From Planctomycetota bacterium (GTDB lineage: Bacteria > Planctomycetota > Phycisphaerae > SM23-33), in NCBI GenBank assembly GCA_009908915.1, contig JAAAOJ010000062.1, positions 5,594 through 69,593 on the forward strand: a stretch of 64,000 bases of DNA, given 5' to 3'. A program made the translations under genes and the position numbers. A model generated the notes under the pieces. The model saw only the letters and a program-made list of their open reading frames with translations. It was not told the origin of the DNA and did not search any database. Below are positions 4,799 through 50,215 of the stretch, piece by piece. Position 1 is the first letter of the stretch; the number at the start of each line of letters is the position of its first letter.

Positions 4799-5776
4799 AT
4801 GACTGAGACTGAGAACAACCAGCGACAACCCGACCGTCTCGAAACGTTGTTGGCCGTGTGGGGCGCCGAGACGGCCGCCAAAGAGCAGGAGCTGCCGCCG
4901 CCGCCGCGGGAGGTCCGCATCCGCCAGTTGCCGTGGATGTGGCGTTGTGCCGTGCCGGCTGCGGCTGTGCTGCTAATCGGACTCCTGGCGGTCTGGGGGC
5001 CGCTGCGCGGGCTGCGACGAGGCGACGCCCAGCACGCGGCCAAGGCGCCGTCGAAGACCGACTTGGCCGAGGTTGCCACGCTCCAGAGCGAACTGGACGA
5101 TCTGCGCACCAAGCATGCCGAGGAGGTCGCGGGCCTGCGAGGCGAACTGGTGAAGGTCCGTAAGCGTCGAGAAGCGGTGGAACTCGAGGCGAAGGAGTCG
5201 GCCCGACGCGTGGCGGAACTGACCGAGGCCAATGAGGACTATCGCCGCGATATCGCCAAGGTCGGTGAGGCTACGCGGCGACTGCACCGGTTCGAGCAGG
5301 AGGTCGGCGCCCTGCAGGGCAAGCTGGCGAAACTGCAGATTCAACTCGGCGAGCAGAGCCAGCAGGCCGAGGTCGCCACCAACGCGTTGAAGCAGCTTCG
5401 CGAAAGCCGGCAGACGTTATTGGCGCAGTTGGGTGAGTGGTACTTTGCGGCGTCGGCGCCGGGCGAGCGCGGTGTGACGGCTGCCCGCATCGCGGCCCGC
5501 AATAACCAGTTGCTCCGGCGGCTGGAGGTGCTGCGAGCCGACGGCGTGACCGTCGATGCTGAGGAGACCGTCGCGGCGGCCGAGACGTTGCTGCTGCGGC
5601 TGGCGATGCTGCCCGAAGGCGAGCCCGAGGCCACCGGCGCATGGATCAGCGCCGTTGAGCGAAGCGGCGTGATCGCAACCATCGACGAGGCGTTGCTGGC
5701 CGACCCGCCGGCTGGACTGGGCCGATGGCTGCTGGAAGCACGGATGATCCTTTCGGAGGGCGGCCATGTCAGCTAG
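4799..5776 (+). CDS. putative anti-sigma factor / membrane coiled-coil protein
   Basis: Lies immediately downstream of the ECF sigma gene. Has an AGGTGA ribosome-binding site, a single TM helix (AVPAAAVLLIGLLAVWGPL) and long coiled-coil heptads (LQSELDDLRTKHAEEVAGLRGELVKVRKRREAVELEAKE). Confidence 0.5.
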   Translation: MTETENNQRQPDRLETLLAVWGAETAAKEQELPPPPREVRIRQLPWMWRCAVPAAAVLLIGLLAVWGPLRGLRRGDAQHAAKAPSKTDLAEVATLQSELDDLRTKHAEEVAGLRGELVKVRKRREAVELEAKESARRVAELTEANEDYRRDIAKVGEATRRLHRFEQEVGALQGKLAKLQIQLGEQSQQAEVATNALKQLRESRQTLLAQLGEWYFAASAPGERGVTAARIAARNNQLLRRLEVLRADGVTVDAEETVAAAETLLLRLAMLPEGEPEATGAWISAVERSGVIATIDEALLADPPAGLGRWLLEARMILSEGGHVS

Positions 5777-10028: not shown

Positions 10029-11210
10029 CTACATCTGGCGGTTGACCAGCCCGGTCTTGGCCTGGCTGATGCCCTTCATCATCATCCGCAGTTCTTCGGC
10101 GTTGGGGGCTACGCTGTAGGCCGCCTTCGGGTCGATCAGGTCTTTTTCGATCAGGTCGAACAGGCTTCGCGAGAAGCACTGCATGCCGTCGCCTTCGCCG
10201 GAGCGGATCACGTCGGCGAGGTCGGCGTCTCGACCGTCCTCGAGCAGCCCGCGGACGGTGGCCGTGCTGAGGAGGATTTCGACGGCTGGCACGCGGTCGA
10301 TGCCGTCGGCCACGCTGGGCAGGAGCTTCTGGCAGATGATGGCCTGAAGGTTGTACGCGAAGGACTGCATGATGTTGTCCCGCGATTCCGGCGGGAACAT
10401 GTCGAGGATACGGCTGACGGTCTGGGGAGCCGTCGAGGCATGCACCGTGCCGAAGACCAGGTGACCGGTCTCGGAGGCCTGCAGGGCGGCCTCAAAGGTA
10501 TCGCGGTCGCGCATCTCACCGATGAGCACGATGTCGGGGTCCTCACGCAGCAGGCTGCGCAGAGCGTCCTGGAAGCTCTGGACGTCGATTCCGATTTCGC
10601 GCTGGCTGATCAAGGCCTTCTTGTCCTCGTAGAGGTACTCGATGGGGTCCTCGATGGTCACGATGTGGCAGCGTCGCTGGGTGTTGATGTACTCGATCAT
10701 CGAGGCGATGGTCGTACTCTTGCCGCAGCCGGTCGGGCCCGCCAGCAGGACCAGTCCGCCGCTGGCCTGCGTGACCTTCTCCAGTACAGGCGGCAAGTGC
10801 AGCTGCTCGAAGTTCGGGATGTTGCGCGTGACGCGCCGTACAGCGATGCTCGGCTCGCCGCGCTGCAGGAAGATGTTGATGCGGAAGCGGTCGCCGCCGG
10901 GTTCTTCGTGGGCGATGTCGACCTGGCCGTGGTGGACGAAGTAGCTGCGCTGTCCGCTGGTCAGCAGACTGTCGGCCATCTCCTCGACCTGCTGGCGGGG
11001 CAGAGGCTCTTCCTTCACCGGCCGCATCTGCGACTTGACCCGCACGTGCGTGACCGAGTCGGTCTTGATGTGAAGGTCGGAGGCCCCGACCTTGGCCATC
11101 AGCTCGAAGTAGGTCTGCAGCTTGGTGGGGATCTCGCGTTCGTTCCCCTGATGGCCAGCGTCGAGTGGCGGTGCGGCGTCTCTGGCGGGTGGGGGGGTTG
11201 GCTCGCTCAA
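10029..11210 (-). CDS. pilT: type IV pilus twitching-motility ATPase PilT
   Basis: Intact Walker A ([10 protein letters not shown]), Asp box/Walker B ([14 protein letters not shown]), His box ([10 protein letters not shown]) and an N-terminal GASDLHIK motif. Apparent TTG start; its start region overlaps the hisF stop by 4 nt. Confidence 0.85.
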
Positions 11211-12037
11211 CGTGAACTCCTCTGCTTGGGATGATCGCGCCTGTCCTCTCGCGTCAGCGGCGTGGGGGCCAAGCGACGGACGACCACGCCGTGGCGGGCG
11301 AGGTAGGCCTTGGTTTGGTCAATGGTGTACGTGCCGAAGTGGAAGATGCTGGCGGCCAGGGCGGCGTCGGCCCCGCCGCGCGTGACGGCCTGGACCATGT
11401 GCTCCGGGCTGCCCGCGCCGCCGGAAGCGATCACGGGGATATCGACGGCCTGTGCGACGGCCCGGGTGATGTCGAGGTCGTAGCCGTCCTGTGTGCCGTC
11501 GGCGTCCATGACGGTCAGGAGAATCTCACCGGCCCCGCGACGCTCGGCTTCGCGCGCCCAGCCGATGACATCCCGGCCGGTGGGGATCCGTCCGCCGTTG
11601 ATATGCACGTCCCAAAACATGCCGCTGGCACGTTTGATGCGTTTGGGGTCCATCGCTACGACGATGCATTGGCGGCCGAACTTACGGGCGGCGGCGGTGA
11701 TGACGTCGGGATTGCGAACGGCGGCGGAGTTCATCGCGACCTTGTCGGCGCCGGCCTTGAGCAGCTCGCGGACGTCGTCGACGGTTCGCACGCCGCCGCC
11801 GACGGTCAGGGGCATGAAGACCTCCTCGGCCGTGCGCCGGACGACGTCGAGGGTGATGTTGCGGCTCTCGTGGCTGGCGGTGATATCGAGGAAGACGAGT
11901 TCGTCGGCCCCGGCCAGTTCGTACTGGTGGGCGATCTCGACGGGGTCGCCAGCGTCGCGCAGGTCGACGAAGTTCACGCCTTTGACGACGCGTCCTTCGC
12001 GAACGTCCAGGCAGGGAATGATCCGCTTGGCAAGCAT
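11207..12037 (-). CDS. hisF: imidazole glycerol phosphate synthase cyclase subunit HisF
   Basis: RIIPCLDV...VKG N-terminus and the characteristic (beta/alpha)8 motifs (GADKV, ASGGAG). Start at MLAKRIIP (CAT at 12035-12037). Carries a ~22-aa C-terminal extension that overlaps pilT. Confidence 0.9.
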
Positions 12038-12392
12038 GGTCGTGTGGTTCCGGCAGGGCCGCCCGGCTGGACCCGCCAACGCGGCGGGAAACATCCGTAT
12101 AGGCCCGGCAGCCCGTTTCAAACGCTATCGCATCTGCAGCGGGGCCTTCTTGCCTACGCGTAGTCGTCGCGGAAACTTGATGAACTCACCAATTCATCGG
12201 CGCTTCCGCTCCTCGATGCTCGGCAAACGGCCCCGGCCTCGCGACGCGATCCATTTCTAGGCGGACGGCTGCGGCGGCGGCATGTGCAAAACGGCATTCT
12301 ACCAGCCGACGGCCTGCAAATCCAATCGGCGCGGCCGCTTCAGGGCGCTTTTTTGCTGACATTTCATACGGACGTCGATAAGCTCCTCAGCG

Positions 12393-13022
12393 ATGAGCGA
12401 ACCGACTCTCGACACACTGGTTTTCGGCGGCACGTTTGATCCGATCCATCACGGGCACCTGATCGTCGCCCGCGCCGTCGCCGAGACCATGGGCGTACCG
12501 CGCGTGCTGCTCGTTCCGGCCGCGGCGAATCCGCTGAAGGGCGGCGCCGTCGCCGACGGCCCGCAACGTCTGGACATGTGTCGCCTGGCCGTGGCCGAGG
12601 ACCCGTTGTTCAGCGTCAGTGACATTGAGATCGACCGCCAGCCGCCGAGTTACACCGTCGATACGGTCGAGCAGGTGCAGCGGCAAGGCGGCTGGGGACG
12701 GCTGGGCGTGGTCGTCGGGGCCGATATGCTCGACGAACTGCCCCAATGGCATCGCGTGGAAGAACTGCTGACGGCAGTGGATATCATCATCGTGCCTCGC
12801 CCGCCCCGCACCCCCGGCGACGTGAAGGACACGCTCGATGGTCTGCGCGAAACGCTTGGGACCGGGCCGGTTGCCCGCCTGAAGCAGGCAATCGTTCATG
12901 CACCGATGATCGACATATCGGCCACGCAGATCCGCCGGCGGATCGCCGAAGGGCGGTCCATTCGATATCTCACGCCACCCAAAATTGCCGGATTCATCAG
13001 TAAGCACAATCTTTACGCGTGA
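12393..13022 (+). CDS. nadD: nicotinate-nucleotide adenylyltransferase
   Basis: GGTFDPIHHGH nucleotidyltransferase motif and an ISATQIRRR C-terminal motif. Confidence 0.9.
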   Translation: MSEPTLDTLVFGGTFDPIHHGHLIVARAVAETMGVPRVLLVPAAANPLKGGAVADGPQRLDMCRLAVAEDPLFSVSDIEIDRQPPSYTVDTVEQVQRQGGWGRLGVVVGADMLDELPQWHRVEELLTAVDIIIVPRPPRTPGDVKDTLDGLRETLGTGPVARLKQAIVHAPMIDISATQIRRRIAEGRSIRYLTPPKIAGFISKHNLYA

Positions 13023-13122
13023 ACCGCGAGCTTCATAACCTTTGCGCCAAAAAAATGTTGTGAAACATGGCACCCCTGTCGAACGCGTGATAAAAAAGAT
13101 GCAGAAAAAAGTCATTTATGTC

Positions 13123-13150
13123 TTGATGCAGATTCGGCGTTTGGTATTAT
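13123..13150 (+). promoter_or_regulatory. sigma70-like promoter (TTGATG -N16- TATTAT) in a low-GC island
   Basis: -35 TTGATG at 13123-13128 and -10 TATTAT at 13145-13150, 16 nt apart. Local GC is well below the genome average. Confidence 0.4.
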
Positions 13151-13157
13151 GGTGGTG

Positions 13158-13241
13158 AGGCTCCTCGGTCATAGTTCCCTCTTTGACCGAGACACGCGGT
13201 GCCGGGCTCCCCTCCCCCGGCACCCTTTTTTTGCGCTCGTC
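13158..13241 (+). ncRNA. candidate small RNA (~80 nt) with two hairpins with C/U-rich loops and an intrinsic terminator
   Basis: Hairpin 1: CTCGGTCA-tagttccctctt-TGACCGAG. Hairpin 2: GTGCCGGG-ctcccctccc-CCGGCAC followed by CCTTTTTTT. Starts ~8 nt downstream of the -10. No ORF. Both loops are CCUC-rich and therefore anti-Shine-Dalgarno-like. Confidence 0.4.
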
Positions 13242-13317
13242 GAGCGCTCGTCGAGCGGGTGGGCGCGGACCTCAGGGGATCAAATGACGAGGCAGGGCAT
13301 CGCGAGCGAGCGTTTCT

Positions 13318-14007
13318 TTAGATGCAACCCTTAAGTCTCATCGCGTGATGGGCGGTCACGGCGATCTCGCTGAGGCTGAAGACGCTGGCGTCGAAGGTCA
13401 GATTAAACGCCGGCTTGCGGGGATACTTGCGTTCGTAGATTTTCCGCAGGTACTCGCGTCTCTCGGTTTCCTCGTTGATATGGATTTTGGCCTGCGTTTC
13501 GCTGAGGCCTTCGCGGAAGGCGATCTGCTTGACCCGCCAGTCCACGGGTGCTTCGAGACGAACGCTGATGCCGTTGGGAATGTCCGCCGTCGCGGCGGCC
13601 GAGCCCTGCCCGACAAGAATCGCGTGACCGTCGATGGCCAGTTCACGGATGATGGCCGTCATACGGTTGCGGATCTCCATGCCGCTCGGCACGCGCTCCT
13701 TCTGGCCGGAGATCGTGCGGAAGAAGTTCTTCAGCAGGCCGGGCTTGGCGCGGCGTTCGCGCTCGATGACCTCCAAGGCCACACCCGTTTCGCCGGCAAG
13801 GTTATCGAGGATCTCCTTGTGGTAGATGTGCCATGTCTTGCCTTCATCGGCATCGTCGTTGAGAAGGTCCAGCAGTAGCAGGCCCAGCGAGAATCCACCG
13901 CAGCCGTACTGGCGCGAGATCGCCACAAACGGTCCCGCCTCGGAGAGATCCTCGTCGCAGGCCGTTCGAGGCTGCCGCATCTGTCTTGCCAGTGAATTCT
14001 CTGTCAT
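13318..14007 (-). CDS. cytidylate kinase-like family protein
   Basis: P-loop-like ISRQYGCGG and overall resemblance to the cytidylate kinase-like family (~230 aa). Co-directional with, and immediately downstream of, the PIN/TRAM gene. Confidence 0.6.
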   Translation of the reverse strand: MTENSLARQMRQPRTACDEDLSEAGPFVAISRQYGCGGFSLGLLLLDLLNDDADEGKTWHIYHKEILDNLAGETGVALEVIERERRAKPGLLKNFFRTISGQKERVPSGMEIRNRMTAIIRELAIDGHAILVGQGSAAATADIPNGISVRLEAPVDWRVKQIAFREGLSETQAKIHINEETERREYLRKIYERKYPRKPAFNLTFDASVFSLSEIAVTAHHAMRLKGCI

Positions 14008-14086
14008 GAATCCCGTGTCCCGTAGGTTTCCATGCTACGCAACGGCGAGCCGCGCGGCCCGTGCCCTGGTTCACCGGGCCGGCCGG

Positions 14087-15166
14087 TCACGTTCGCTCGG
14101 ACGTTTCGGCCTCGCGGGGTGGCCGGGACTTCTCCGCCCTGTCCACGCGGCCGAAGATCATGCGGCCGGCCGAGGTCTGCAGTACGCTGGTGACGGTGAT
14201 CTCCACCTGCGAGCCGATGTGTTCGCGACCATGCTCCGTGACAACCATCGTGCCGTCGTCGAGATATCCCACGCCCTGTCCTGGTTCCTCGCCGGGACGG
14301 ATCACCTTGACGGTCATCTTCTCACCCGGCAGGACCACGGGCTTTAGCGCGTTGGCGAGATCGTTGATGTTGATCACGTCAATGCCTCGCAGGCCGGCAA
14401 CTTTGTTGAGGTTGTAATCGTTGGTCATGATCCGCCCGTTGAGATGCTCGGCGAAGGCCACAAGTTTGGCGTCCACGGCGGCTTCGGCGGCGACGTTCGG
14501 CACGTGAACTTCCAGAATCTTGATATCCGCGGCCGGATCGTTCTGGAGCTTGTGCAGGACGTCAAGGCCCCGGCGGCCGCGGTTACGCTTCAGTTTGTCG
14601 CCGCTGTCGGCAATGCTCTGCAGTTCGCTGAGCACGAAGCGCGGGACGATCATCTCCGCATCGAAGATGCCTGTTTCCACCATGTCGGAGATACGGCCGT
14701 CGATGATGACCGAGGTGTCCAACAGGATCGGGCGGGCGCCCTTGGCCTGTTTGGAGAACTCGACGTAGGGGATGACGAAGCGGAATTCATCCTTGGTCTG
14801 CATGACGATGGTTACGCACAGGAAGACCAGGACGGCCCCGGTGAGGTTCTTTATGAGTACGATGACCGTTGAGTACTGGTCATACTGCGGGACGATGGCA
14901 ATGACCATGTCGATCAGCGCGGTGAAAATCCACGCCATGAACAGACCGGCCAGCAAACCGAAAAACAGGCCGCTGAGTGTGTTCAACTGTTTGCGGCGCC
15001 AGAACATGTCCACAAAGACCAGCGCCACCCCCAGCATCGCCGGGATGATGATGTAGGCGTAGATGTTCTCGCGGTGCTCGTTGACGAAATCCTGATTCAG
15101 CAGGATGGATGAAGTCAGACCCAGCACCGCAACGATGAAGACGGCCCGGATAAGATGAATGATCAT
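14087..15166 (-). CDS. PIN/TRAM domain membrane protein (YacL-like)
   Basis: N-terminal TM helices, a PIN domain (ILLDTSVIIDGRI...D) and a C-terminal TRAM-like beta barrel (GEKMTVKVIRPGEEPGQGVGYLDDGTMVV). Confidence 0.75.
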   Translation of the reverse strand: MIIHLIRAVFIVAVLGLTSSILLNQDFVNEHRENIYAYIIIPAMLGVALVFVDMFWRRKQLNTLSGLFFGLLAGLFMAWIFTALIDMVIAIVPQYDQYSTVIVLIKNLTGAVLVFLCVTIVMQTKDEFRFVIPYVEFSKQAKGARPILLDTSVIIDGRISDMVETGIFDAEMIVPRFVLSELQSIADSGDKLKRNRGRRGLDVLHKLQNDPAADIKILEVHVPNVAAEAAVDAKLVAFAEHLNGRIMTNDYNLNKVAGLRGIDVININDLANALKPVVLPGEKMTVKVIRPGEEPGQGVGYLDDGTMVVTEHGREHIGSQVEITVTSVLQTSAGRMIFGRVDRAEKSRPPREAETSERT

Positions 15167-17862: not shown

Positions 17863-18003
17863 AGCCGACAGTAGAACCGATCTACCGGGCGATTGCTACC
17901 CATTGACGCAGCCGGGCGAACGTGCTTTAGTGGAGAATTCCTTTGCCTGCGAGGGCCCGCGACGGCGAGACGCACGGCCGACGCCGCCGGGAGGCGAGTT
18001 ATC

Positions 18004-19752
18004 ATGACGCTTGCACAACTCAACATTCATCACCTGCCGATCCTGCTGATCGTCGGCTTTGCGCTGTTCGCCGGTGGGCTGGGAGCCCGACTGTTCCAGC
18101 GGCTGCGTATCCCGCAGGTGGTCGGGTACATCATCATTGGCGTGATCCTCGGCCGCAGCGGCTTCGGCCTGGTCAGCGACGAGGCCATCGCGCAGATGCG
18201 GCTGTTCAACCTCGTCGCCCTGGGGATGATCGGTTTCATGATCGGCGGCGAGTTGCGACTGGACGTCTTCCGGCGGCACGGGCGACGGTTGATGACGATT
18301 CTGCTGGCCGAGGGCCTCTCGGCGTTCGTGCTGGTCAGCCCGCTGACCTTCGGCGTGACGTTCCTGTTCACGCGCGACCTCGCCGTCTCGTCGGCGCTGG
18401 GCATCGTGCTGGGTGCCATCTCCTCGGCGACCGCGCCGGCGGCGACCGTCGACGTGCTGTGGGAGTACAAGACGCGCGGACCGGTCACGACGGCCGTCTT
18501 CGCCATCGTGGCCCTGGACGACGGCCTGGCGCTGGTCCTGTACGGCATGGCCAGCAGCGTCGCCGGGCTGCTCATCGGCAGCAACGGCGGGCGGAGCCTG
18601 GCCGAGTCGCTGGGCTGGACGGCGTGGGAACTCCTCGGGGCGGTGCTGCTGGGCGTGATTGGCGGGTTTGTGCTCAACAGCGTCCTCCGCCTGGCCCGCG
18701 ACCACGACAAGGCCCTGACGTTCATTCTCGGAGCGCTCGTAGTCGTTCTCGGCGTGGCAATGGCGGCCGCGCTGGACGTCATTCTCGCCGCGATGGCGTT
18801 GGGCATGACGGTGGTGAACCTGGCACCGCGCCGCACGCGTGAGACGTTCAACATCGTCGAGCGGTTCGCACCGCCAATCTACGTGCTGTTCTTCGTGATC
18901 GTCGGCGCACGCCTGTCGGTGGGCGACATGAAGGGCTGGATGTGGGCGCTGGCGGCGGCCTACGTGCTGGGGCGGACGGGCGGGAAGATGCTGGGGGCGT
19001 ATCTCGGCGCGCGATGGGCCGGCGCCGCCGAGACGCTACGGCAGTACCTCGGCCTGTGCCTCTTCAGCCAGGCCGGCGTCGCCATCGGTCTGGCGATCAT
19101 GGCCTCTGAAACCTTCCCGCCGGCTATCGGCAATGCCGTGGCACTGATCGTCACGGCCACAACGTTCCTCGTGCAGCTCGTCGGGCCGCCGTGCGTGAAG
19201 GTCGCTGTCAGCCGGGCCGGCGAGGTCGGCATGAATGTCACCCGCGAGAACCTCGTCAAACTCTACAACGTCGGCAACGTGATGAGCCGCGAGCCCGTCT
19301 GCATCACCGAGAACGCACCGTACCATAACGTCTGCCTCAAGGTCCGCGAAACCGACGCGACGGTCTACCCGGTCGTCGACGCCGAACAGCGTCTGCTCGG
19401 CGTAGTCACCGTCGACGGCCTTAAGGCCAGCCTCGGCCGCGACGGGATGGCCGACCTGGTGGTGGCCTCTGACCTCATGCAGCCGGTGGACGACACCGTC
19501 GCCGCCGATACGCCGCTCGCCAATGCGATGCAGCGCATGAGCGAGCGCGAACTGGACTATCTCGCCGTCATTGAACCGACCGACGACGGACCGCCGCGAC
19601 TGCTCGGTCTGCTGGAACGTCGGGCGGCCGACCGCTTTCTCAGCCGCGAGCTTCTGCGGCGCGAAGAGGCCGCCGTCGACCAGGAACAGTCGCAACTGCT
19701 CCGCGACGCCATCCGCCGCAAGTCCGGCCGAAAGCCCAGGGCGCCGAGCTGA
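18004..19752 (+). CDS. cation:proton antiporter (CPA family) with C-terminal CBS-pair domain
   Basis: About 11 TM helices plus tandem CBS domains (VMSREPVCI...VYPVVD / LMQPVDDTV...LDYLAVIE). Start at MTLAQLN (ATG 18004). Confidence 0.8.
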   Translation: MTLAQLNIHHLPILLIVGFALFAGGLGARLFQRLRIPQVVGYIIIGVILGRSGFGLVSDEAIAQMRLFNLVALGMIGFMIGGELRLDVFRRHGRRLMTILLAEGLSAFVLVSPLTFGVTFLFTRDLAVSSALGIVLGAISSATAPAATVDVLWEYKTRGPVTTAVFAIVALDDGLALVLYGMASSVAGLLIGSNGGRSLAESLGWTAWELLGAVLLGVIGGFVLNSVLRLARDHDKALTFILGALVVVLGVAMAAALDVILAAMALGMTVVNLAPRRTRETFNIVERFAPPIYVLFFVIVGARLSVGDMKGWMWALAAAYVLGRTGGKMLGAYLGARWAGAAETLRQYLGLCLFSQAGVAIGLAIMASETFPPAIGNAVALIVTATTFLVQLVGPPCVKVAVSRAGEVGMNVTRENLVKLYNVGNVMSREPVCITENAPYHNVCLKVRETDATVYPVVDAEQRLLGVVTVDGLKASLGRDGMADLVVASDLMQPVDDTVAADTPLANAMQRMSERELDYLAVIEPTDDGPPRLLGLLERRAADRFLSRELLRREEAAVDQEQSQLLRDAIRRKSGRKPRAPS

Positions 19753-31063: not shown

Positions 31064-31187
31064 GACGGCTCCCTCAATACTCCGGGGTAGTACCCCTCAG
31101 CTCCATTGTCGTGACGTAACGTCTTCGTTTTCGCTTGCATCACAGGAACAGTTTGCTTTTCCGGCCATCTGACTTTCGCGGGAGGCT
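31064..31187. repeat. decayed second copy of the MITE-like element
   Basis: Left end GACGGCTCCCTCA, shared internal CGTGACGTAACGTCT core, degenerate right end (..CGCGGGAGGCT). No target-site duplication. Confidence 0.45.
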
Positions 31188-31342
31188 TTTTGGGTTTTTT
31201 GGGGTTTTGGACCCTCCCTAGTCCCAGAATTCCAATAAGTCCGATAATATATATTATGTGGCGCTAGGGGGTTTATTGCAGCGAACGCTGTCGGGAATTG
31301 CTCGAAATGGCCGTGTAGCGGTCACATTCTCACAGATGTCGG

Positions 31343-34143: not shown

Positions 34144-34280
34144 GTCGGTCAATCCTTGGTGCCCGTTATGAGTAATGCGTTATGAATTCAGGGCAGTCGC
34201 GAATGTAAATGAGGACAGCGATGGTGCCTGCCGCTTTCCATTCATAACTCCGAATTCTTAAATTCGAATTCACGGTCGAT

Positions 34281-34871
34281 TTACTTTTTCTTGTTCTTTC
34301 TACGTTTCGCGGCCTTGCGGTCTTTTTTGATGACGCCGCGAGCAACGAGGCGGGCCCGCATGTCCTTCTTCTTCATGCCCTCAGCCTTTGCGCGGAACTT
34401 GACGAGCTGCTTCTCGAACTCCTCGTCGCCGAGCGTCTTACGGGCGTAGTCCATGATGCTCTCGGGTGCGGTGAACTCCGCCTGGTAGTTGTAGTCCTCA
34501 CCGACGTACTCGCACTCGTCGCCGTAGTTACGGCAGATGATCGGCCGGTCGTCGTAGATCGTGCAGCGGCCGTCCTTGCCGAGCATATTGCACGGGTTCA
34601 TGATCTGGATGTACCAGCGGCCGTCCTCGTCGATATGCACGCTGACGCCTTCGTGGCAGATATACCAGCGAATATCGTCGAACTCCCCGAAGTCGTCCGG
34701 CTCGTCGATCTCGAAGCAGAAGTACTTGCAGCACAGGCCCTTGCATTTGTCACAGGGAAGCGTCAACTCAGTGCACTCCAGTGGCTTTCGCCGGGGATCA
34801 TGACCGCGGGCCTCCACGACGGCGGCCCCGCGGCGGTCGATTATAGGCAAGCGGCCACAAAAAACAAACAT
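34281..34871 (-). CDS. YkgJ-family cysteine-cluster protein (UPF0153 / zinc-iron chelating domain)
   Basis: CDKCKGLCC...C...C cysteine cluster with a Lys-rich C-terminal tail. Start chosen at MFVFCGR. The upstream 28 codons look non-coding: a TTGATT/TATAT promoter-like sequence sits there. Confidence 0.6.
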   Translation of the reverse strand: MFVFCGRLPIIDRRGAAVVEARGHDPRRKPLECTELTLPCDKCKGLCCKYFCFEIDEPDDFGEFDDIRWYICHEGVSVHIDEDGRWYIQIMNPCNMLGKDGRCTIYDDRPIICRNYGDECEYVGEDYNYQAEFTAPESIMDYARKTLGDEEFEKQLVKFRAKAEGMKKKDMRARLVARGVIKKDRKAAKRRKNKKK

Positions 34872-35190
34872 CGCCCCGCTTGTGTTTGCCGCCTGCCGAC
34901 ATATAATCAACAGGCATCTGAAGGTACGTGAGTCGAGGACCCATGCGGACGACATGCCACATGCCGAGCGAGACGCGAGCGCGCCAGGCAGTCATGGTCC
35001 GCGCCCGCATGATTGGGGTCATTGTTATCCGCCACGTGCCCTAGGGCCCTGCGAGAACCGACAACCATCGCGAGCCCCGGGGCCTGTTGCCCCGGGGTTC
35101 TTTTTTGCTCGCACCGCGCGGTGCGGGCCGATACCGTGACAAAACTGCAATTGAATATCGCCCGCTGAGACGGGCAAGCACATAGGCTAT

Positions 35191-37094: not shown

Positions 37095-40000
37095 ATGTCG
37101 ACTGAATTGGCGAAGGTTTACGAGCCGCAGAACATCGAGCAGGACATCTACAATCGCTGGATCGAGGCCGGCGCCTTCCATGCCGAATGCGACGCCGACT
37201 ACGACGGCGATACGTTCGGCATGGTCATTCCCCCGCCGAACGTCACGGCCGCCCTGCATCTCGGCCATGCGCTGAACAACGCTCTGCAGGACGTCCTGAT
37301 CCGGTGGCGGCGAATGCAGCAGTACAACACGCTGTGGATGCCCGGCACGGACCACGCGGGCATCGCCACGCAGACCGTCGTCGAGAAACGCCTGCTGGCC
37401 GAGGAAGGCAAACGCCGCACGGAATACGATCGCGACGAGTTCGTCGCTCGCGTGCAGGACTGGAAGGACGAGTACGAGGCCCGCATCCTCAATCAACTCA
37501 AGACGATGGGTTGCAGTTGCGACTGGGACCGCACGAGATTCACCATGGACGAGGTCTGCGCCAAGGCCGTCCGCGAAACGTTCTTCCGCCTGTTCGCCGA
37601 CAGGCTGATCTATCGTGGCAAGCGGCTGGTGAACTGGGACCCGGCCACGCAGACCGTGTTGGCCGACGATGAAGTCGAGCACGAGGAAATCCGCGGCCAC
37701 TTCTGGTATCTCCAATACCCCCTCGTCGAGCCGGTGACCCTGCCTAGTGGCACGGACGTCCTGCCCGTGTCTGATACTCATGGGCGGGATGCCCATGCCA
37801 CGACAATCACGCACATTACCGTCGCCACCACCCGGCCGGAGACCATGCTGGGCGATACCGCCGTGGCGATGAACCCCAAGGACCCCCGGGCTGAGGCGCT
37901 GGCGGGCAGGAAGGTGCGGCTGCCGATTGTCGGGCGCGAAATCCCGATCATCGCCGACGACCACGTGGTGGCCCCCGACCCCGACAGCGACGACGAGAAG
38001 GCCAGGTTCTCCACCGGCTTCCTGAAGGTCACCCCCGCCCACGACCCGGACGACTACCAGATCGGCCAGCGGCACGACCTGCCGATGATTAACGTGATGG
38101 CCCCCGACGGCAGCATCAGCAAGGACCACGGCTGGGACGACTGGGACGCCATCGCCAACCCCGACGTCGAGAACATTATCGGCATGGACCGCTTCGAGGC
38201 CCGCGAGGCCATCGTTGAATTCTTCCGCCAGGAGACGCTGCTGGAAGACGTGCGCGACTACACGCATCAGGTCGGCCACAGCTACCGCAGCCACGTGCCG
38301 ATCGAACCGTACCTCTCCGACCAGTGGTACGTCGCCGTCAAAAAGCCGATTGCCGATGTCGGGTTCGAGATCGCGGATTTCGAAACACTCCGTAGCGACG
38401 GCACAGTCGAAACGAAAGACGGCGTGGAGTTCATCAAGGACACGGACGTGCCGCTGGCTAGCCTGGCCGGGCTGGCCCTGGCCCCCCTGCTTGCCGACCG
38501 CCTGACATTCACGCCGGAGCGTTACACCCGCAATTACCAGACCTGGCTGGAAAACCTCCGCGACTGGCCGATCTCTCGACAGCTCTGGTGGGGCCACCAG
38601 ATTCCGGTCTGGTCCAAGGCGATCGAAAACGTGGACGATCTGAAGGAGGCCAGTTCTGTCTTCTTCGCCCTTCTTGACGAGAACCTCTCGAACCCGAATC
38701 TCATGTTCACCGCCTATGAGATTGAGACGCAGATGACTTTGGATCATTCGAGAATGAGAGAATGTCTCCAATCTGATAAACTGAGTCGGCCTTTCTACGC
38801 ATTTGCCTGTCTGCGTTCTGATTGTGCGAACGATATCCAAGCATTGGAAGCCGCCGGCTTCGTTCGCGACCCCGACGTTCTCGACACGTGGTTCTCTTCG
38901 GCGTTGTGGCCGTTCAGTACACTCGGCTGGCCGGATGAAACCGACGCCCTCAAAACGTTCTATCCCAATGATGTCCTCTCGACGGCCCGGGAGATCATCA
39001 CGCTGTGGGTCAGCCGCATGGTGATGATGGGCCAATATTGTCTGGGCGACATCCCCTTCTGCGACGTGTTCATCCACGCGATGATCCAGGACGGCGAGGG
39101 CCGAAAAATGTCCAAGAGCCTTGGCAATGGCGTGGACCCGCTGGATATCATCGCCAGTCACGGCAGCGACGCCATGCGTTACACGCTGGTGAGCATGACC
39201 ACGCAGACCCAGGACGTCCGCATGCCGCTGGAGACGATGACGCTGCCCGACGGCCGCGAGGTCAACAGCAGCCCGAAGTTCGACATCGGCCGAAACTTCG
39301 CCAACAAGCTCTGGAACGCCGCGCGCTTCGCCATGATGAAGCTCCAGCGCGTCCCGGGCTGGGACCACATCCGCCCCGGCGACAGTCTGCCCGACCAGTG
39401 GATCCTCAGCCGCCTCAACAACACCGTACGCGACGCGACGGCCGCCCTCGACGGCTACCGCTTCAACGAGCTGGCCGAGCGGCTGTACCACTTCGTCTGG
39501 GACGATTTCTGCGACTGGTACCTTGAGATATCCAAGGTGCGAATCGCCGACGGGGAGAGCCAACCCAAGGCCGTCGTCGCCTACGTGCTCGATGCGATCC
39601 TGCGGCTGCTGCACCCGATCATGCCCTACATCACCGAGGCCATCTGGCAGCAGCTTAATCACGTTGTCCCTGCGCGCGGGCCGGGCGATATCGAGGCCGA
39701 GACCCTGCTTGTCACCGCCGAGTGGCCGCGGGCGGACGGCGAGATGATCAACCCCGGCGCGGAAGGCGCGTTCAACCTATTTGCCGACTGCGTGCGGGAC
39801 ATTCGCAACGTGCGGACGCAGCACAACGTCCCTCCGAGCGAGAAGGTCAGCGTGACGGCCGAGGTCGTCGAGGGCCATCCCTCGGCGGACATCCTGCGGG
39901 AGAACGTCGAGGTGCTCAAGGCGCTGGCGGGCATCGGCGAGTTGACGATCTCCGGCGAGGCCGTTCAGCAGCCGGGCAACGCCGCGGCGATCAATGTCGG

Positions 40001-40241: not shown

Positions 40242-40462
40242 GGGCAGAAGGCCAAGGTCCGAGAGCTCCAGAAAAAGACAAAGACCCTCACCCGGCCTCT
40301 CCCAGAGGGAGAGGAGTAGAAACCCCTCCCCTCTTGGGGGAGGTGGCGAGTCTTCGAGCCGGTACGGGGGCTCTTCCGGAAGGGCAGAGAGCCCCGGCTG
40401 CCAGGCGGCAGGATTTCCATATCGGCCACGCCTCTCGGCGCATTTCGCGATACAATGTGCCA

Positions 40463-47624: not shown

Positions 47625-48746
47625 CTAAACATTCAGCGTCGCGGCCGAGGCGCAGGTCAGAACGACGTTGTCCCAGACGGTCTTGGCGGCCACGTTCCGC
47701 CACAGCAGGCGTTCGTAGCGGCTGAGCTGCTGGAGAATTTCGGCGATCTGGTCGGGATCGTGACGAGCGGCGAGGTCGGCCACGGCGGCGGCCTGGTCGG
47801 CGTTGATGAGAACACGCTCGGCGCCGGTGGCGACGGTCATGGCATCGCGGTAGGCGGCCGCGATTAGCTGAAGCATCACCGCGGCGGCCCGGCGGGTGGC
47901 GAGGGTCTTGGCGAGGTCGGCCCCGGCGGATTTCTTGATGCGCTTAACCTCCGCCTCGGCGAGGGTGTCGCTGGTCGTGGCGAGGGACTCGCCGAGCGTG
48001 ACGTCCCCGGCCGGACCGAGCGCGGCCAGCCGGCCCAGTATGTCGCACTTGATGTCGTACAGGCCGGCCGCGGCGTGGTCGAGCGCCCCCCCGACGCTGC
48101 CGTCGGTGAAGGCGGCCCAGAAGGCGGCTTCGGTGGGCTGGACCTCGGCGGCGGCGAGTTTTTCAATCACGAAATCGTGCGGCAGGGCCCCGAAGCGGAT
48201 GAGCGCGCAGCGGCTTCGCGTCGTCGGCAGGAGCATATCGGCCTTGCCGCAGACGAGGATGATCGTGGTCTTTGGGGGCGGCTCTTCGAGGATCTTCAGC
48301 ATCGAGTTCTGGGCCTCGATCGTCAGCAGCTCGGTTTCCAGGACGATGAAGACCTTGCCCTGGCCCTGTGTGGAGGCCCGCCCGGCCGGGGCCAGAAGGA
48401 AGCTGCGAATCACCTCAATGCCGAGCGACTGCATCTTGCGGTTGCGGATGTCGGCGTTCTCGTGGTAGCGGGCGAGTTCTTTGTAGATCCGGTGGACGTC
48501 CGGGTGGTTACCGCCGGCGATCAGGCGGCAGCTCTGGCACGATCCGCAGGCCGTTCGCTGGCCGGCGAGGTCCGTCTGGGGGCTCTCGCACAGCAGCAAG
48601 GCCGCCAGGGCCAATGCGGTCGTCTCCCGGCCGACGCCGTCGGGCCCGGCGAACAGGAACGCATGCGGCATGCGGTCGGCAGCCAGGCAGGTCCGCAACC
48701 GCCCTGTCGCCTCCTGTTGACCGATGATGTCCTGCAAGTGAATCAT
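47625..48746 (-). CDS. holB: DNA polymerase III subunit delta prime
   Basis: AAA+ clamp-loader fold: HAFLFAGPDGVGRET, CxxCxxC zinc module (CGSCQSC), SRC motif (TRSRC). Confidence 0.85.
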   Translation of the reverse strand: MIHLQDIIGQQEATGRLRTCLAADRMPHAFLFAGPDGVGRETTALALAALLLCESPQTDLAGQRTACGSCQSCRLIAGGNHPDVHRIYKELARYHENADIRNRKMQSLGIEVIRSFLLAPAGRASTQGQGKVFIVLETELLTIEAQNSMLKILEEPPPKTTIILVCGKADMLLPTTRSRCALIRFGALPHDFVIEKLAAAEVQPTEAAFWAAFTDGSVGGALDHAAAGLYDIKCDILGRLAALGPAGDVTLGESLATTSDTLAEAEVKRIKKSAGADLAKTLATRRAAAVMLQLIAAAYRDAMTVATGAERVLINADQAAAVADLAARHDPDQIAEILQQLSRYERLLWRNVAAKTVWDNVVLTCASAATLNV

Positions 48747-49398
48747 GCGGACTCCGCTCCAAATGCTACCGATCTCACTTCGTCTGCATGCTCTCGAAGG
48801 CTTGTTCGAAGGTTCACGCCCATCGGAACGAGTGATACTTGCGTGCCTTCGCGTCTCGCGAATTTCATGGCAGGAATGAAGTCTGTGTCAGCAGTGACAA
48901 GGACAATTCTGTCGACAATTCGCTTTGAAGCCATCCATGCAACATCGAGTCCGATCTTCATGTCGACTCGTTTCTGAATCAGTTCGGGGGGCAAGATCGT
49001 CCATGTCCAGCGGGCGAGGTTCCGCGACGAGATTGTCAAGTGCCCTCGACGAGACGGCCCAACCTTTGAAGAGCAACTCTCCCTTTCGGTAGGCCACATT
49101 GTCCATCAAAGCAAGCTCGTCCTGAAACGCCTTCATTCGTCGTGCGGTGTCAGACTCACCAAGGTGTACATTATGCGCACGGTCGAGTGGATGGCGAACG
49201 CTCGATCCATAGGGGGGGACAATCATAGTCATAGATTCGAAAGAGTTCTTCTCTTGGCCCGACACACATAAGAGCGAACTGATATACCGCTCTGACAGAC
49301 GGATGTTTGTTCCCGAGCAGCCGATAAAGCCGTTTCAAGACAAAGCCCCCATCCAACAAGACGGCCACACTTTTGCTCACTACGAATCCTTCCTGCAT
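48743..49398 (-). pseudogene. NYN-domain (LabA-like) nuclease gene split into three frames; low-GC island
   Basis: Fragment 1 (49398 down to 49171): VAVLLDGGFVLKR. Fragment 2 (49265 down to 48888): RMKAFQDELALMDNVAYRKGELLFKGWAV. Fragment 3 (49099 down to 48743): IVLVTADTDFIPAMKFARREG. The frame changes coincide with a G7 tract at 49212-49218 and a G6 tract at 48977-48982. Confidence 0.6.
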
Positions 49399-49576
49399 TC
49401 ACAGGCTACAAAAATTGACCCTGCCACGCATTGGATAATAAGCGCATGACAGGGCCTTTTTTCTACATGCCGGCCTACCGGCGTTCGGATTCTGCTTACA
49501 GGAATACTACGACCTGTAGCACTCGAATGATCACTGTTATTTTTCGGACAATGAGGCATGTTCTCAACCCATAAAG

Positions 49577-50215
49577 CTATATTTTCTGGATGTGACTTTC
49601 CAAGGCTTTAACAATACGCTCATGGACCTGCTCCGGCGTGCCGGCAGCGTCGACCAGCGCCACCGGGGCCGGGTAGCAGCCCGGCAGGGCCTGGAAGTTC
49701 CGCCGCACCTGCTCGTGGTAATCGTCGGTGCGGCTTTCCATGCGGTCGCGCACCTTGCCGACGCGCGAGAGGCCCTCGCCACTGGGCAGGTCGAGTACGA
49801 GCGTCAGGTCCGGCCAGAGTTTCTCGATGGCCATGTCTGCCGCAACGATGATGGCCTGGGGCTCGATGCCGAGAGCGCCCTGGTAGGCGAGTGTCGCTGA
49901 GATGAAGCGATCGCACAGCACGACGCGGCCGCCTTCGCTGGCTGGCCGGATGACCTCGGCCACTAGTTGGGCGCGACTGGCCATGAACAGCATGGTCTCG
50001 CACATCGGGGCGAGGTCGAGGTCCTCGTGATGTAGGAGAATGTCGCGGATCTGCTGGCCGGCGGGCGTGCCGCCCGGGTCGACGGCTCGGGCGACGTCAA
50101 GCCCCGCCTGCTGCAGCGCCTCGGTCAGCAGGTCGAGTTGCGTGGTCTTGCCGGCTCCGTCCGGGCCGTCCATCACGAGGAAGCGGCCTTTGAGTTTCGA
50201 GAAGCTTTCGTCCAT
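49577..50215 (-). CDS. tmk: thymidylate kinase
   Basis: P-loop GPDGAGKTT, DRF motif (CDRF), and the lid region. Start MDESFSKLKGRF (CAT 50213-50215). Confidence 0.9.
   Translation of the reverse strand: MDESFSKLKGRFLVMDGPDGAGKTTQLDLLTEALQQAGLDVARAVDPGGTPAGQQIRDILLHHEDLDLAPMCETMLFMASRAQLVAEVIRPASEGGRVVLCDRFISATLAYQGALGIEPQAIIVAADMAIEKLWPDLTLVLDLPSGEGLSRVGKVRDRMESRTDDYHEQVRRNFQALPGCYPAPVALVDAAGTPEQVHERIVKALESHIQKI

Follow-up and report, generated by a model that had tools for sequence, protein, structure and literature searches.

The 295-bp gap at positions 13023-13317 of the window, the whole 64-kb stretch of Planctomycetota DNA that was analysed, lies 3' of nadD between two convergent genes and raises the question of whether it holds the tail of nadD or a transcribed element of its own. 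As judged from the sequence, the gap very probably encodes an independently transcribed, structured small RNA (sRNA). The predicted transcript is about 76 nt long (13157-13232, + strand), as placed by covariance model, fold and promoter position. An initial annotation had proposed a stand-alone plus-strand sRNA of about 80 nt at this site, and its structural elements are supported by a conserved promoter, hairpins, loops and covarying stems. The upstream gene, nadD (12393-13022, + strand), encodes nicotinate-nucleotide adenylyltransferase (TIGR00482, 161 bits against a cutoff of 112), and the convergent gene (13318-14007, - strand) gave a protein-family match to PF13189 (Cytidylate_kin2), which bears out the names nadD and kinase-like first given to the two flanks.

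The conserved transcribed block opens at gUGAGG (13155-13160), and the covariance model matched the window at 13155-13238 with 98-116 bits. The RNA is predicted to begin with a single-stranded 5' segment, (G)AGGCUC (13157-13163, + strand), which is conserved in the family and leads into the lower stem CUCGG of hairpin 1. Hairpin 1 (13164-13191, + strand) has a perfect 8-bp stem with covariation at one pair, formed by the arms CTCGGTCA (13164-13171) and TGACCGAG (13184-13191) around a 12-nt loop, UAGUUCCCUCUU (13172-13183), and is thus the same 8-bp hairpin that had been described initially. It is followed by a Rho-independent terminator (13198-13232, + strand) with a GC-rich 9-bp stem, the arms being GGTGCCGGG (13198-13206) and CCCGGCACC (13216-13224), a 9-nt loop, CUCCCCUCC (CTCCCCTCC at 13207-13215), and then C and U7 (C + T7 at 13225-13232). 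The terminator hairpin and U7 of the initial annotation are therefore present, but its unequal arms of 8 and 7 nt and its 10-nt loop have to be replaced by these values. The automated terminator scan had bypassed this hairpin solely because of its 8-nt loop limit. The 78-nt unit folds at -34.2 kcal/mol (z = -4.75 against dinucleotide shuffles), and none of 200 shuffles was as stable. A bidirectional terminator was ruled out, because the minus strand has no U-run after the hairpin.

Directly 3' of the terminator lies an exact 11-nt tandem duplication forming overlapping palindromes, GCGCTCGTCGA twice (13233-13243 and 13244-13254) followed by GCG (13233-13257, + strand in all). The doubled palindrome noted initially does exist, but it is strain-specific and outside the conserved element; relatives have just its first GCGCTC, and it was ruled out as part of the element since they do not conserve the duplication. 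GCGC directly after the U-run was seen in about half of the family members.

The promoter assigned to the RNA is of the sigma70 type (13123-13150, + strand), with the -35 hexamer TTGATG at 13123-13128, a 16-nt spacer, an extended -10 TG at 13142-13143 and the -10 hexamer TATTAT at 13145-13150. It was returned by the promoter scan exactly where TTGATG-16-TATTAT had been placed before, and it is conserved in relatives; in the alignment of the closest clade, -35 CTTGAWGCA and -10 TTTG-N-TAYTAT are kept. It was the sole sigma70-like site in 12000-14500, where one site against 0.5 expected is by itself not significant. Across the family, a perfect TTGACA located 16-18 nt from a -10-like hexamer was found in 38 of 47 distinct upstream regions, and a match of at least 9/12 to the promoter consensus in 43 of 47. 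An A-tract resembling an UP element, GTGATAAAAAAG...GAAAAAAG (13087-13111, + strand), precedes the -35 hexamer. Its A-runs, TGATAAAAAA and a second run of AAAAAA, are invariant in the window and the closest clade (L083, L084/85 and L086), where the flanks diverge, and A-runs 5' of the -35 occur in most other family members too; we infer that they act as an UP element. The low-GC island reported earlier holds for this promoter part only: GC is 42.9% in 13023-13155, as low as in just 0.17% of 133-nt windows, but 63% in the sRNA unit itself and 68% in 13233-13317.

The 5' end is predicted to within 2 nt from the position of the -10 hexamer, and the 3' end falls within the U-run. In most clades 12-29 nt separate the end of the -10 hexamer from the conserved gUGAGG, so that the transcript should carry a short 5' leader, whereas in the window clade this distance is just 4 nt, which gives the predicted start at about 13157 and the length of about 76 nt. 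Outside the window clade, the predicted leader often begins with GGCG(C/U), for example GGCGCAAUA or GGCGUUUCA (L100 at 5100-5121, L139, L121 and L147), 15-25 nt upstream of gUGAGG. This GGCG(C/U) repeats the first bases of the terminator 5' arm (GGCGU...); competition for the 3' arm of the terminator is one possibility, and a mere preference for these bases at the start of transcription is another. No such leader is present in the window copy.

Relatives of the element were located through the nadD neighbourhood, independently of the RNA sequence. The window NadD protein is identical to one annotated in the 'Planctomycetes bacterium' metagenome-assembled genome (MAG) GCA_018335055.1, and its nearest named relatives are Phycisphaerae MAGs. 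Six further copies of the element were recovered from nadD synteny alone, with NadD identities to the window protein of about 48-63%. The contigs carrying the closest public NadD proteins (59-63% identical; L083, L084/L085 and L086, the last partial) have a near-identical unit directly after nadD. In their alignment with the window, the flanks diverge, the A-tracts, the promoter and the block from gUGAGG to the U-run are conserved, and one G-C pair of the terminator has become A-U. The closest-clade sequences were used to build a covariance model, which matched a locus beside a nadD of 53% identity (L092/L093, 72 bits) in which loop 2 is the same and the terminator stem is rewritten. A second model matched L215 (85.8 bits), a contig whose nadD, 48% identical, is named 'Phycisphaerae bacterium SM23_33'. 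The covariance-model search advised in the initial annotation thus recovered copies in contigs with distant nadD genes (53% and 48%). In the resulting pattern-independent set of five distinct sequences, 85 of 85 stem cells were paired, compared with 25-48% when the partners were slid, and double changes occurred at five pairs, including four of the nine terminator pairs. Loop 2, CUCCCCUCC, was identical across the synteny-found copies and the UCCCUC core of loop 1 was kept. GUGAGGCUCCUCGG of the 5' segment was invariant in four of the five distinct copies, L215 having GAGAGG.

Searches with the covariance model also defined where the element does not occur. No copy was found in 80 GTDB representative nadD loci (L001-L080; nadD at most 45% identical, mostly from other phyla), no paralog in the 64-kb window, and no sRNA in the nadD neighbourhoods L094, L216 and L217. 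One 23.7-bit match in L217 (4750-4837, - strand), near a nadD-coaD pair without the sRNA, was discarded because its loops lack the C/U motifs; it has two hairpins and a U8 terminator, and could represent a small RNA or terminator unconnected with the family.

A larger set came from a metagenome scan with a pattern that required blocks of the 5' segment and of both loops (GAGGCTC / TCCCTC / TCCCCTCC). The pattern returned at least 120 stretches; among the 80 loci taken, 46 were covariance-model matches at 42-84 bits, and the other 34 were C/T-rich low-complexity chance matches. On viral contigs, a 16-base pattern matched five times and the covariance model rejected all five. In the 46 distinct sequences, 99.9% of 782 stem cells were standard pairs (30-44% when partners were slid), and double changes were found at seven pairs (39 cells), a level reached by none of 500 shuffles. 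Compensatory changes affected six of the nine terminator pairs. Hairpin 1 had one covarying pair among its eight (U-A in 27, C-G in 13, U-G in 5 and G-C in 1), and its lower five pairs (CUCGG/CCGAG) did not vary. The frequent G-U and U-G pairs, which would be A-C mismatches on the other strand, place the RNA on the + strand, where the U-run and the promoter also lie. The consensus of loop 1 is AACUCCCUCCUU, and the loops across the 46 sequences read CUCCCUCC(UU) and CUCCCCUCC. The element is thus predicted to be one member of a conserved, previously uncatalogued sRNA family, broadly distributed among Phycisphaerae-type Planctomycetota, with at least 50 members.

The position of the family relative to its neighbours was then compared among loci. 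In about 35 loci the gene immediately 5' of the sRNA is nadD, in the same orientation (39-60% identity to the window protein); in about 38, a convergent coaD (TIGR01510, 166 bits) follows after 2-320 nt. The order T2SSE-family ATPase (-), HisA/HisF-family gene (-), nadD (+), sRNA (+), coaD (-) is kept down to about 45% nadD identity (L083, L085, L092, L100, L117, L122, L126, L133 and L146), and the window matches it at 10029-13022, that is, up to nadD. In the window, the place held by coaD in most relatives is taken by the cytidylate-kinase-like gene; a PIN-TRAM gene (14087-15166, - strand) also sits where coaD is normally found. Elsewhere, with no nadD upstream, the gene that precedes the sRNA and its promoter encodes an RND pump (L128), an oxidoreductase (L147) or a transposase (L104). 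Conversely, the nadD-coaD pair of L217 has a 22-nt gap and no sRNA. The RNA persists without nadD or coaD and the L217 pair exists without the RNA, so the element is neither a mere 3' untranslated region (UTR) of nadD nor an obligatory insulator. The stretch 13023-13122 has no visible terminator for nadD itself, and nadD read-through therefore probably ends at the sRNA terminator. As far as sequence inference goes, the RNA has the features of the trans-encoded sRNA class: its own promoter, independent of its neighbours, an intrinsic terminator with no conserved open reading frame (ORF), and, in the five pattern-independent sequences, conserved unpaired seeds (loop 2 and the UCCCUC core).

Comparison with known sRNA families at Rfam 15 gathering thresholds gave no family match for the window or for 12 homologous loci. 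A search at permissive E-values was run on the window copy and on a typical member, L100. The best sub-threshold resemblance of the window copy was to mmgR/αr8 (RF00519, 'suhB'; 17.2 bits against a gathering value of 41, E = 0.79 in an 800-nt search). L100 resembled αr14/cuckoo best (RF02344; 26.3 bits against 58.8, E = 0.002), a family not among the matches of the window copy, and also resembled 6C (RF01066; 20.9 bits against 47, E = 0.75). SorY reached 14.1 bits, likewise below threshold.

The αr14/cuckoo RNAs carry two to four hairpins with an anti-Shine-Dalgarno (aSD) loop motif on stems dominated by compensatory changes, and one of them, NfeR1, occludes the ribosome-binding site of ntrB through aSD motifs (PMC4615179, PMC10746234). 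This group (NfeR1, CcsR/RSs0680) and the present family share adjacent hairpins with ultraconserved C/U-rich aSD-like loops and compensatory stems, and both keep their genomic context and have a promoter of their own and a Rho-independent terminator (PMC4615179, PMC10746234). However, the αr14/cuckoo motif CCUCCUCCC defines two to four adjacent hairpin loops (PMC4615179), whereas our family has two hairpins and the motif in none of the 46 sequences; CCTCCTCCC was likewise found in 0 of the 46 distinct sequences, the loops being of the AACUCCCUCCUU type and CUCCCCUCC. The variable-stem trait applies to the terminator hairpin (six of nine pairs) and just partly to hairpin 1 (one of eight). Unlike the clustered αr14/cuckoo RNAs of Alphaproteobacteria, this family occurs as a single copy per locus in Planctomycetota, with a nearly invariant stem 1. 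The 6C RNA of Actinobacteria (B11/6C) is also short, comes from high-GC hosts and has two hairpins, whose C-rich loops recognise G-rich mRNA sites through chaperone-independent G-C pairing (PMC6486639). Its loops are runs of at least six C, whereas the loops here are mixed C/U with a longest C-run of four (CUCCCCUCC); in addition, the second hairpin here is the terminator itself, and phylum and genomic context are unrelated. mmgR/αr8 is similar in its length of about 77 nt and in a C/U-rich CCUCC-type motif before the terminator hairpin, but the score is compatible with chance and the match is mostly terminator and U-run. In the RoxS/RsaE and UCCC-motif sRNAs of Firmicutes, C-rich unpaired motifs target G-rich ribosome-binding sites (for the RoxS context, see PMC8216469). 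These RNAs differ in architecture and taxon and gave no Rfam match at any listed threshold. αr14/cuckoo, 6C and mmgR are therefore analogues and not relatives; the family is new, of a known mechanistic kind, and a member of none of the families compared.

By analogy with αr14/cuckoo, 6C and RoxS-type sRNAs, and from the pattern of conserved loops on variable stems, the RNA is probably a trans-acting repressor of multiple targets whose two redundant loops base-pair with G-rich ribosome-binding sites. Sequence and comparison point to a strong sigma70-type promoter of its own, within the AT-rich DNA that follows nadD, and to an intrinsic terminator of its own. The RNA is predicted to fold into two hairpins whose apical loops expose C/U-rich, anti-Shine-Dalgarno-like sequences, UCCCUC(C)UU (loop 1) and CUCCCCUCC (loop of the terminator). 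These loops may serve as redundant seeds that pair in trans with GGAG/GGGAG-type ribosome-binding sites of several mRNAs. Such pairing would occlude the ribosome-binding site and lower translation, mRNA stability or both, and a chaperone may be dispensable because the loop pairing is rich in G-C. In these organisms many coaD and nadD start codons are preceded by Shine-Dalgarno (SD)-like sequences of the GGAG/GGGAG type, so sites complementary to the loops do exist.

Several points weigh against the proposed repressor or limit it. In the duplex scan of the 64-kb GC-rich window, generic G-rich sites dominated and no specific target was discriminated, and the coaD/nadD initiation regions surpassed random segments in loop pairing by just a small margin (p ~0.03). 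A search of all loci for near-exact complements of the loops gave scattered matches at no conserved position. The target prediction that the initial annotation had called for thus singled out no mRNA in the window duplex scan, the loop-complement search or the coaD/nadD start regions. The loop conservation in the 46 metagenome copies was partly forced by the search pattern, which required GAGGCTC, TCCCTC and TCCCCTCC, so that unbiased loop conservation is to be read from the five distinct synteny-found sequences. The unvarying lower stem 1 and the 5' GAGGCUC are unexplained by seed pairing, and a protein partner could account for them. Furthermore, the 5' end of the transcript is predicted from promoter position alone, and the window clade departs from the family consensus in loop 1 (UAGUUCCCUCUU), in the -35 hexamer (TTGATG) and in having no 5' leader. 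Two 8/9 complements of loop 2 in the window lie 5-9 nt upstream of an ATG, GGAGCGGAG (48752-48760, - strand; gene 47625-48746, - strand) and GGAGGCGAG (17990-17998, + strand; gene ~18007-19752, + strand), and are candidate targets without statistical support.

Among other explanations, it is unlikely that a real RNA at this locus mainly binds or titrates a protein or the translation machinery, for example a pyrimidine/C-rich-binding protein or factors recognising the 16S rRNA 3' tail, instead of pairing antisense with mRNAs. This would fit the target scans, which yielded no specific mRNA, and the 5' GAGGCUC and CUCGG/CCGAG, invariant without covariation in 46 of 46 sequences and more like a protein-recognition site than a plain stem. 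It would also fit the consensus loop 1, which contains CCUCCUU(U), identical to the usual anti-SD sequence at the 3' end of 16S rRNA. However, the search pattern itself demanded GAGGCTC and accounts for part of the invariance, no protein stands out as a candidate, and the repeated-motif architecture of CsrB/RsmZ-type sponges is missing. Moreover, all experimentally studied aSD-like C-rich-loop sRNAs pair with mRNAs (PMC10746234, PMC6486639). A bolder variant starts from the loops of most members, CCUCCUU(U) in loop 1 and CUCCCCUCC in loop 2. It takes the family as a clade-wide, single-copy housekeeping mimic of the 16S 3' tail that is functionally coupled to nadD/coaD, its fixed neighbours across deep divergence, and acts as a global governor of translation or cofactor metabolism, in place of an ordinary stress sRNA. 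The RNA would then compete with ribosomes for SD sequences globally, or a protein would recognise the invariant GAGGCUC-CUCGG module; we regard this as distinctly unlikely.

Explanations drawn from the neighbouring genes carry still less weight. That the RNA is a locus-specific regulator in cis or of its neighbours, with a functional position between nadD and coaD, is improbable; its role might lie in the expression of nadD/coaD, or the RNA might be favoured as a substrate for 5' capping with nicotinamide adenine dinucleotide (NAD) or coenzyme A (CoA). The arrangement nadD -> sRNA <- coaD is conserved down to about 40% nadD identity, and in the CoA pathway, panD has been validated as a target of the analogous 6C sRNA (PMC6486639). 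The upstream T2SSE and hisF-like genes are syntenic as well, though, so plain gene-order conservation suffices. The slight pairing advantage of the coaD/nadD initiation regions, which could be cited in favour, is expected for any SD-containing start region. The RNA overlaps neither gene, and it was retained both in the window, where coaD has been lost from this place, and in other loci that have lost nadD. It is very improbable that the element is just the nadD 3' UTR with an intrinsic terminator, or an insulator between convergent genes, with no independent transcript and no function in trans. Its place directly downstream on the nadD strand in about 35 loci, and the probable ending of nadD transcripts at its hairpin for want of another terminator in 13023-13122, are what this reading explains well. 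In nearly every copy, however, a near-consensus promoter with A-tracts separates the element from nadD, and promoter and element persist in the three loci with other genes upstream (L128, L147 and L104), which argues against the refuting scenario named in the initial annotation, a mere 3' UTR or terminator of nadD. A terminator needs no invariant 9-nt loop, second conserved hairpin or conserved 5' segment, and some nadD-coaD pairs, such as L217, manage without the element. Finally, the statement that the gap has no ORF was mechanically wrong, since an ATG ORF of 61 codons (13149-13334) and a GTG ORF of 40 codons (13199-13321) span the unit, but neither is supported, and a small protein encoded by the 61-codon or another short ORF is extremely improbable. 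The 61-aa product has no Pfam match, its ATG falls within the -10 hexamer, 5' of the predicted transcription start site, and its frame would run through the terminator hairpin into non-conserved downstream DNA. The linkers between the hairpins measure 4, 5, 6, 7, 8, 9, 10, 11 and 12 nt in relatives, steps that are not multiples of three and so preserve no reading frame. Stop codons interrupt one frame in each of the 46 sequences and the remaining two frames in many of them, and substitutions track base-pairing and not codon positions. The coding reading was rejected, as there is no family match and the linker steps break the frame. The preferred reading remains an independently transcribed sRNA that probably represses several mRNAs in trans.

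Other features were noted elsewhere in the window. Four more short islands with GC of at most 45% occur in this window of 64% GC (31124-31260, 34151-34338, 38713-38849 and 49453-49640); they resemble the promoter region of the sRNA and may hold additional promoters or genes for non-coding RNAs. A strong terminator-like hairpin, GAGCCCCGGGGC-CTGTT-GCCCCGGGGTTC with T6 (35072-35106, + strand), lies in a divergent intergenic region upstream of a + strand gene starting at about 35191, and might represent a further sRNA or a 5' attenuator. After the stop of a 1111-codon gene, there is a cluster of CU-rich/GA-rich palindromes, CCTCTCCCagaGGGAGAGG and then CCCCTCCCCTCTTGGGGGAGG (40290-40345, + strand), whose minus strand contains AGAGGGGAG, an 8/9 complement of sRNA loop 2.

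sRNA regulation in Planctomycetota is almost uncharted. A 2022 survey counted 8 annotated sRNAs in the whole Planctomycetes-Verrucomicrobia-Chlamydiae (PVC) group against 345 in Proteobacteria (PMC9029176, Table 1), and our literature search found no paper on Phycisphaerae sRNAs. The family, which comes from uncultured Phycisphaerae of sediment and saline habitats, opens riboregulation in this phylum instead of establishing a new principle, and with at least 50 members, covariation and a promoter/terminator architecture it is suited to Rfam submission. Its fixed spot between nadD and coaD makes it easy to find in new genomes and offers a testable hypothesis of a link to cofactor metabolism. 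Furthermore, it would be another independent evolutionary appearance of anti-SD-like C-rich loops on variable stems, as in αr14/cuckoo, 6C and RoxS, which suggests that such loops are a general solution in high-GC bacteria.

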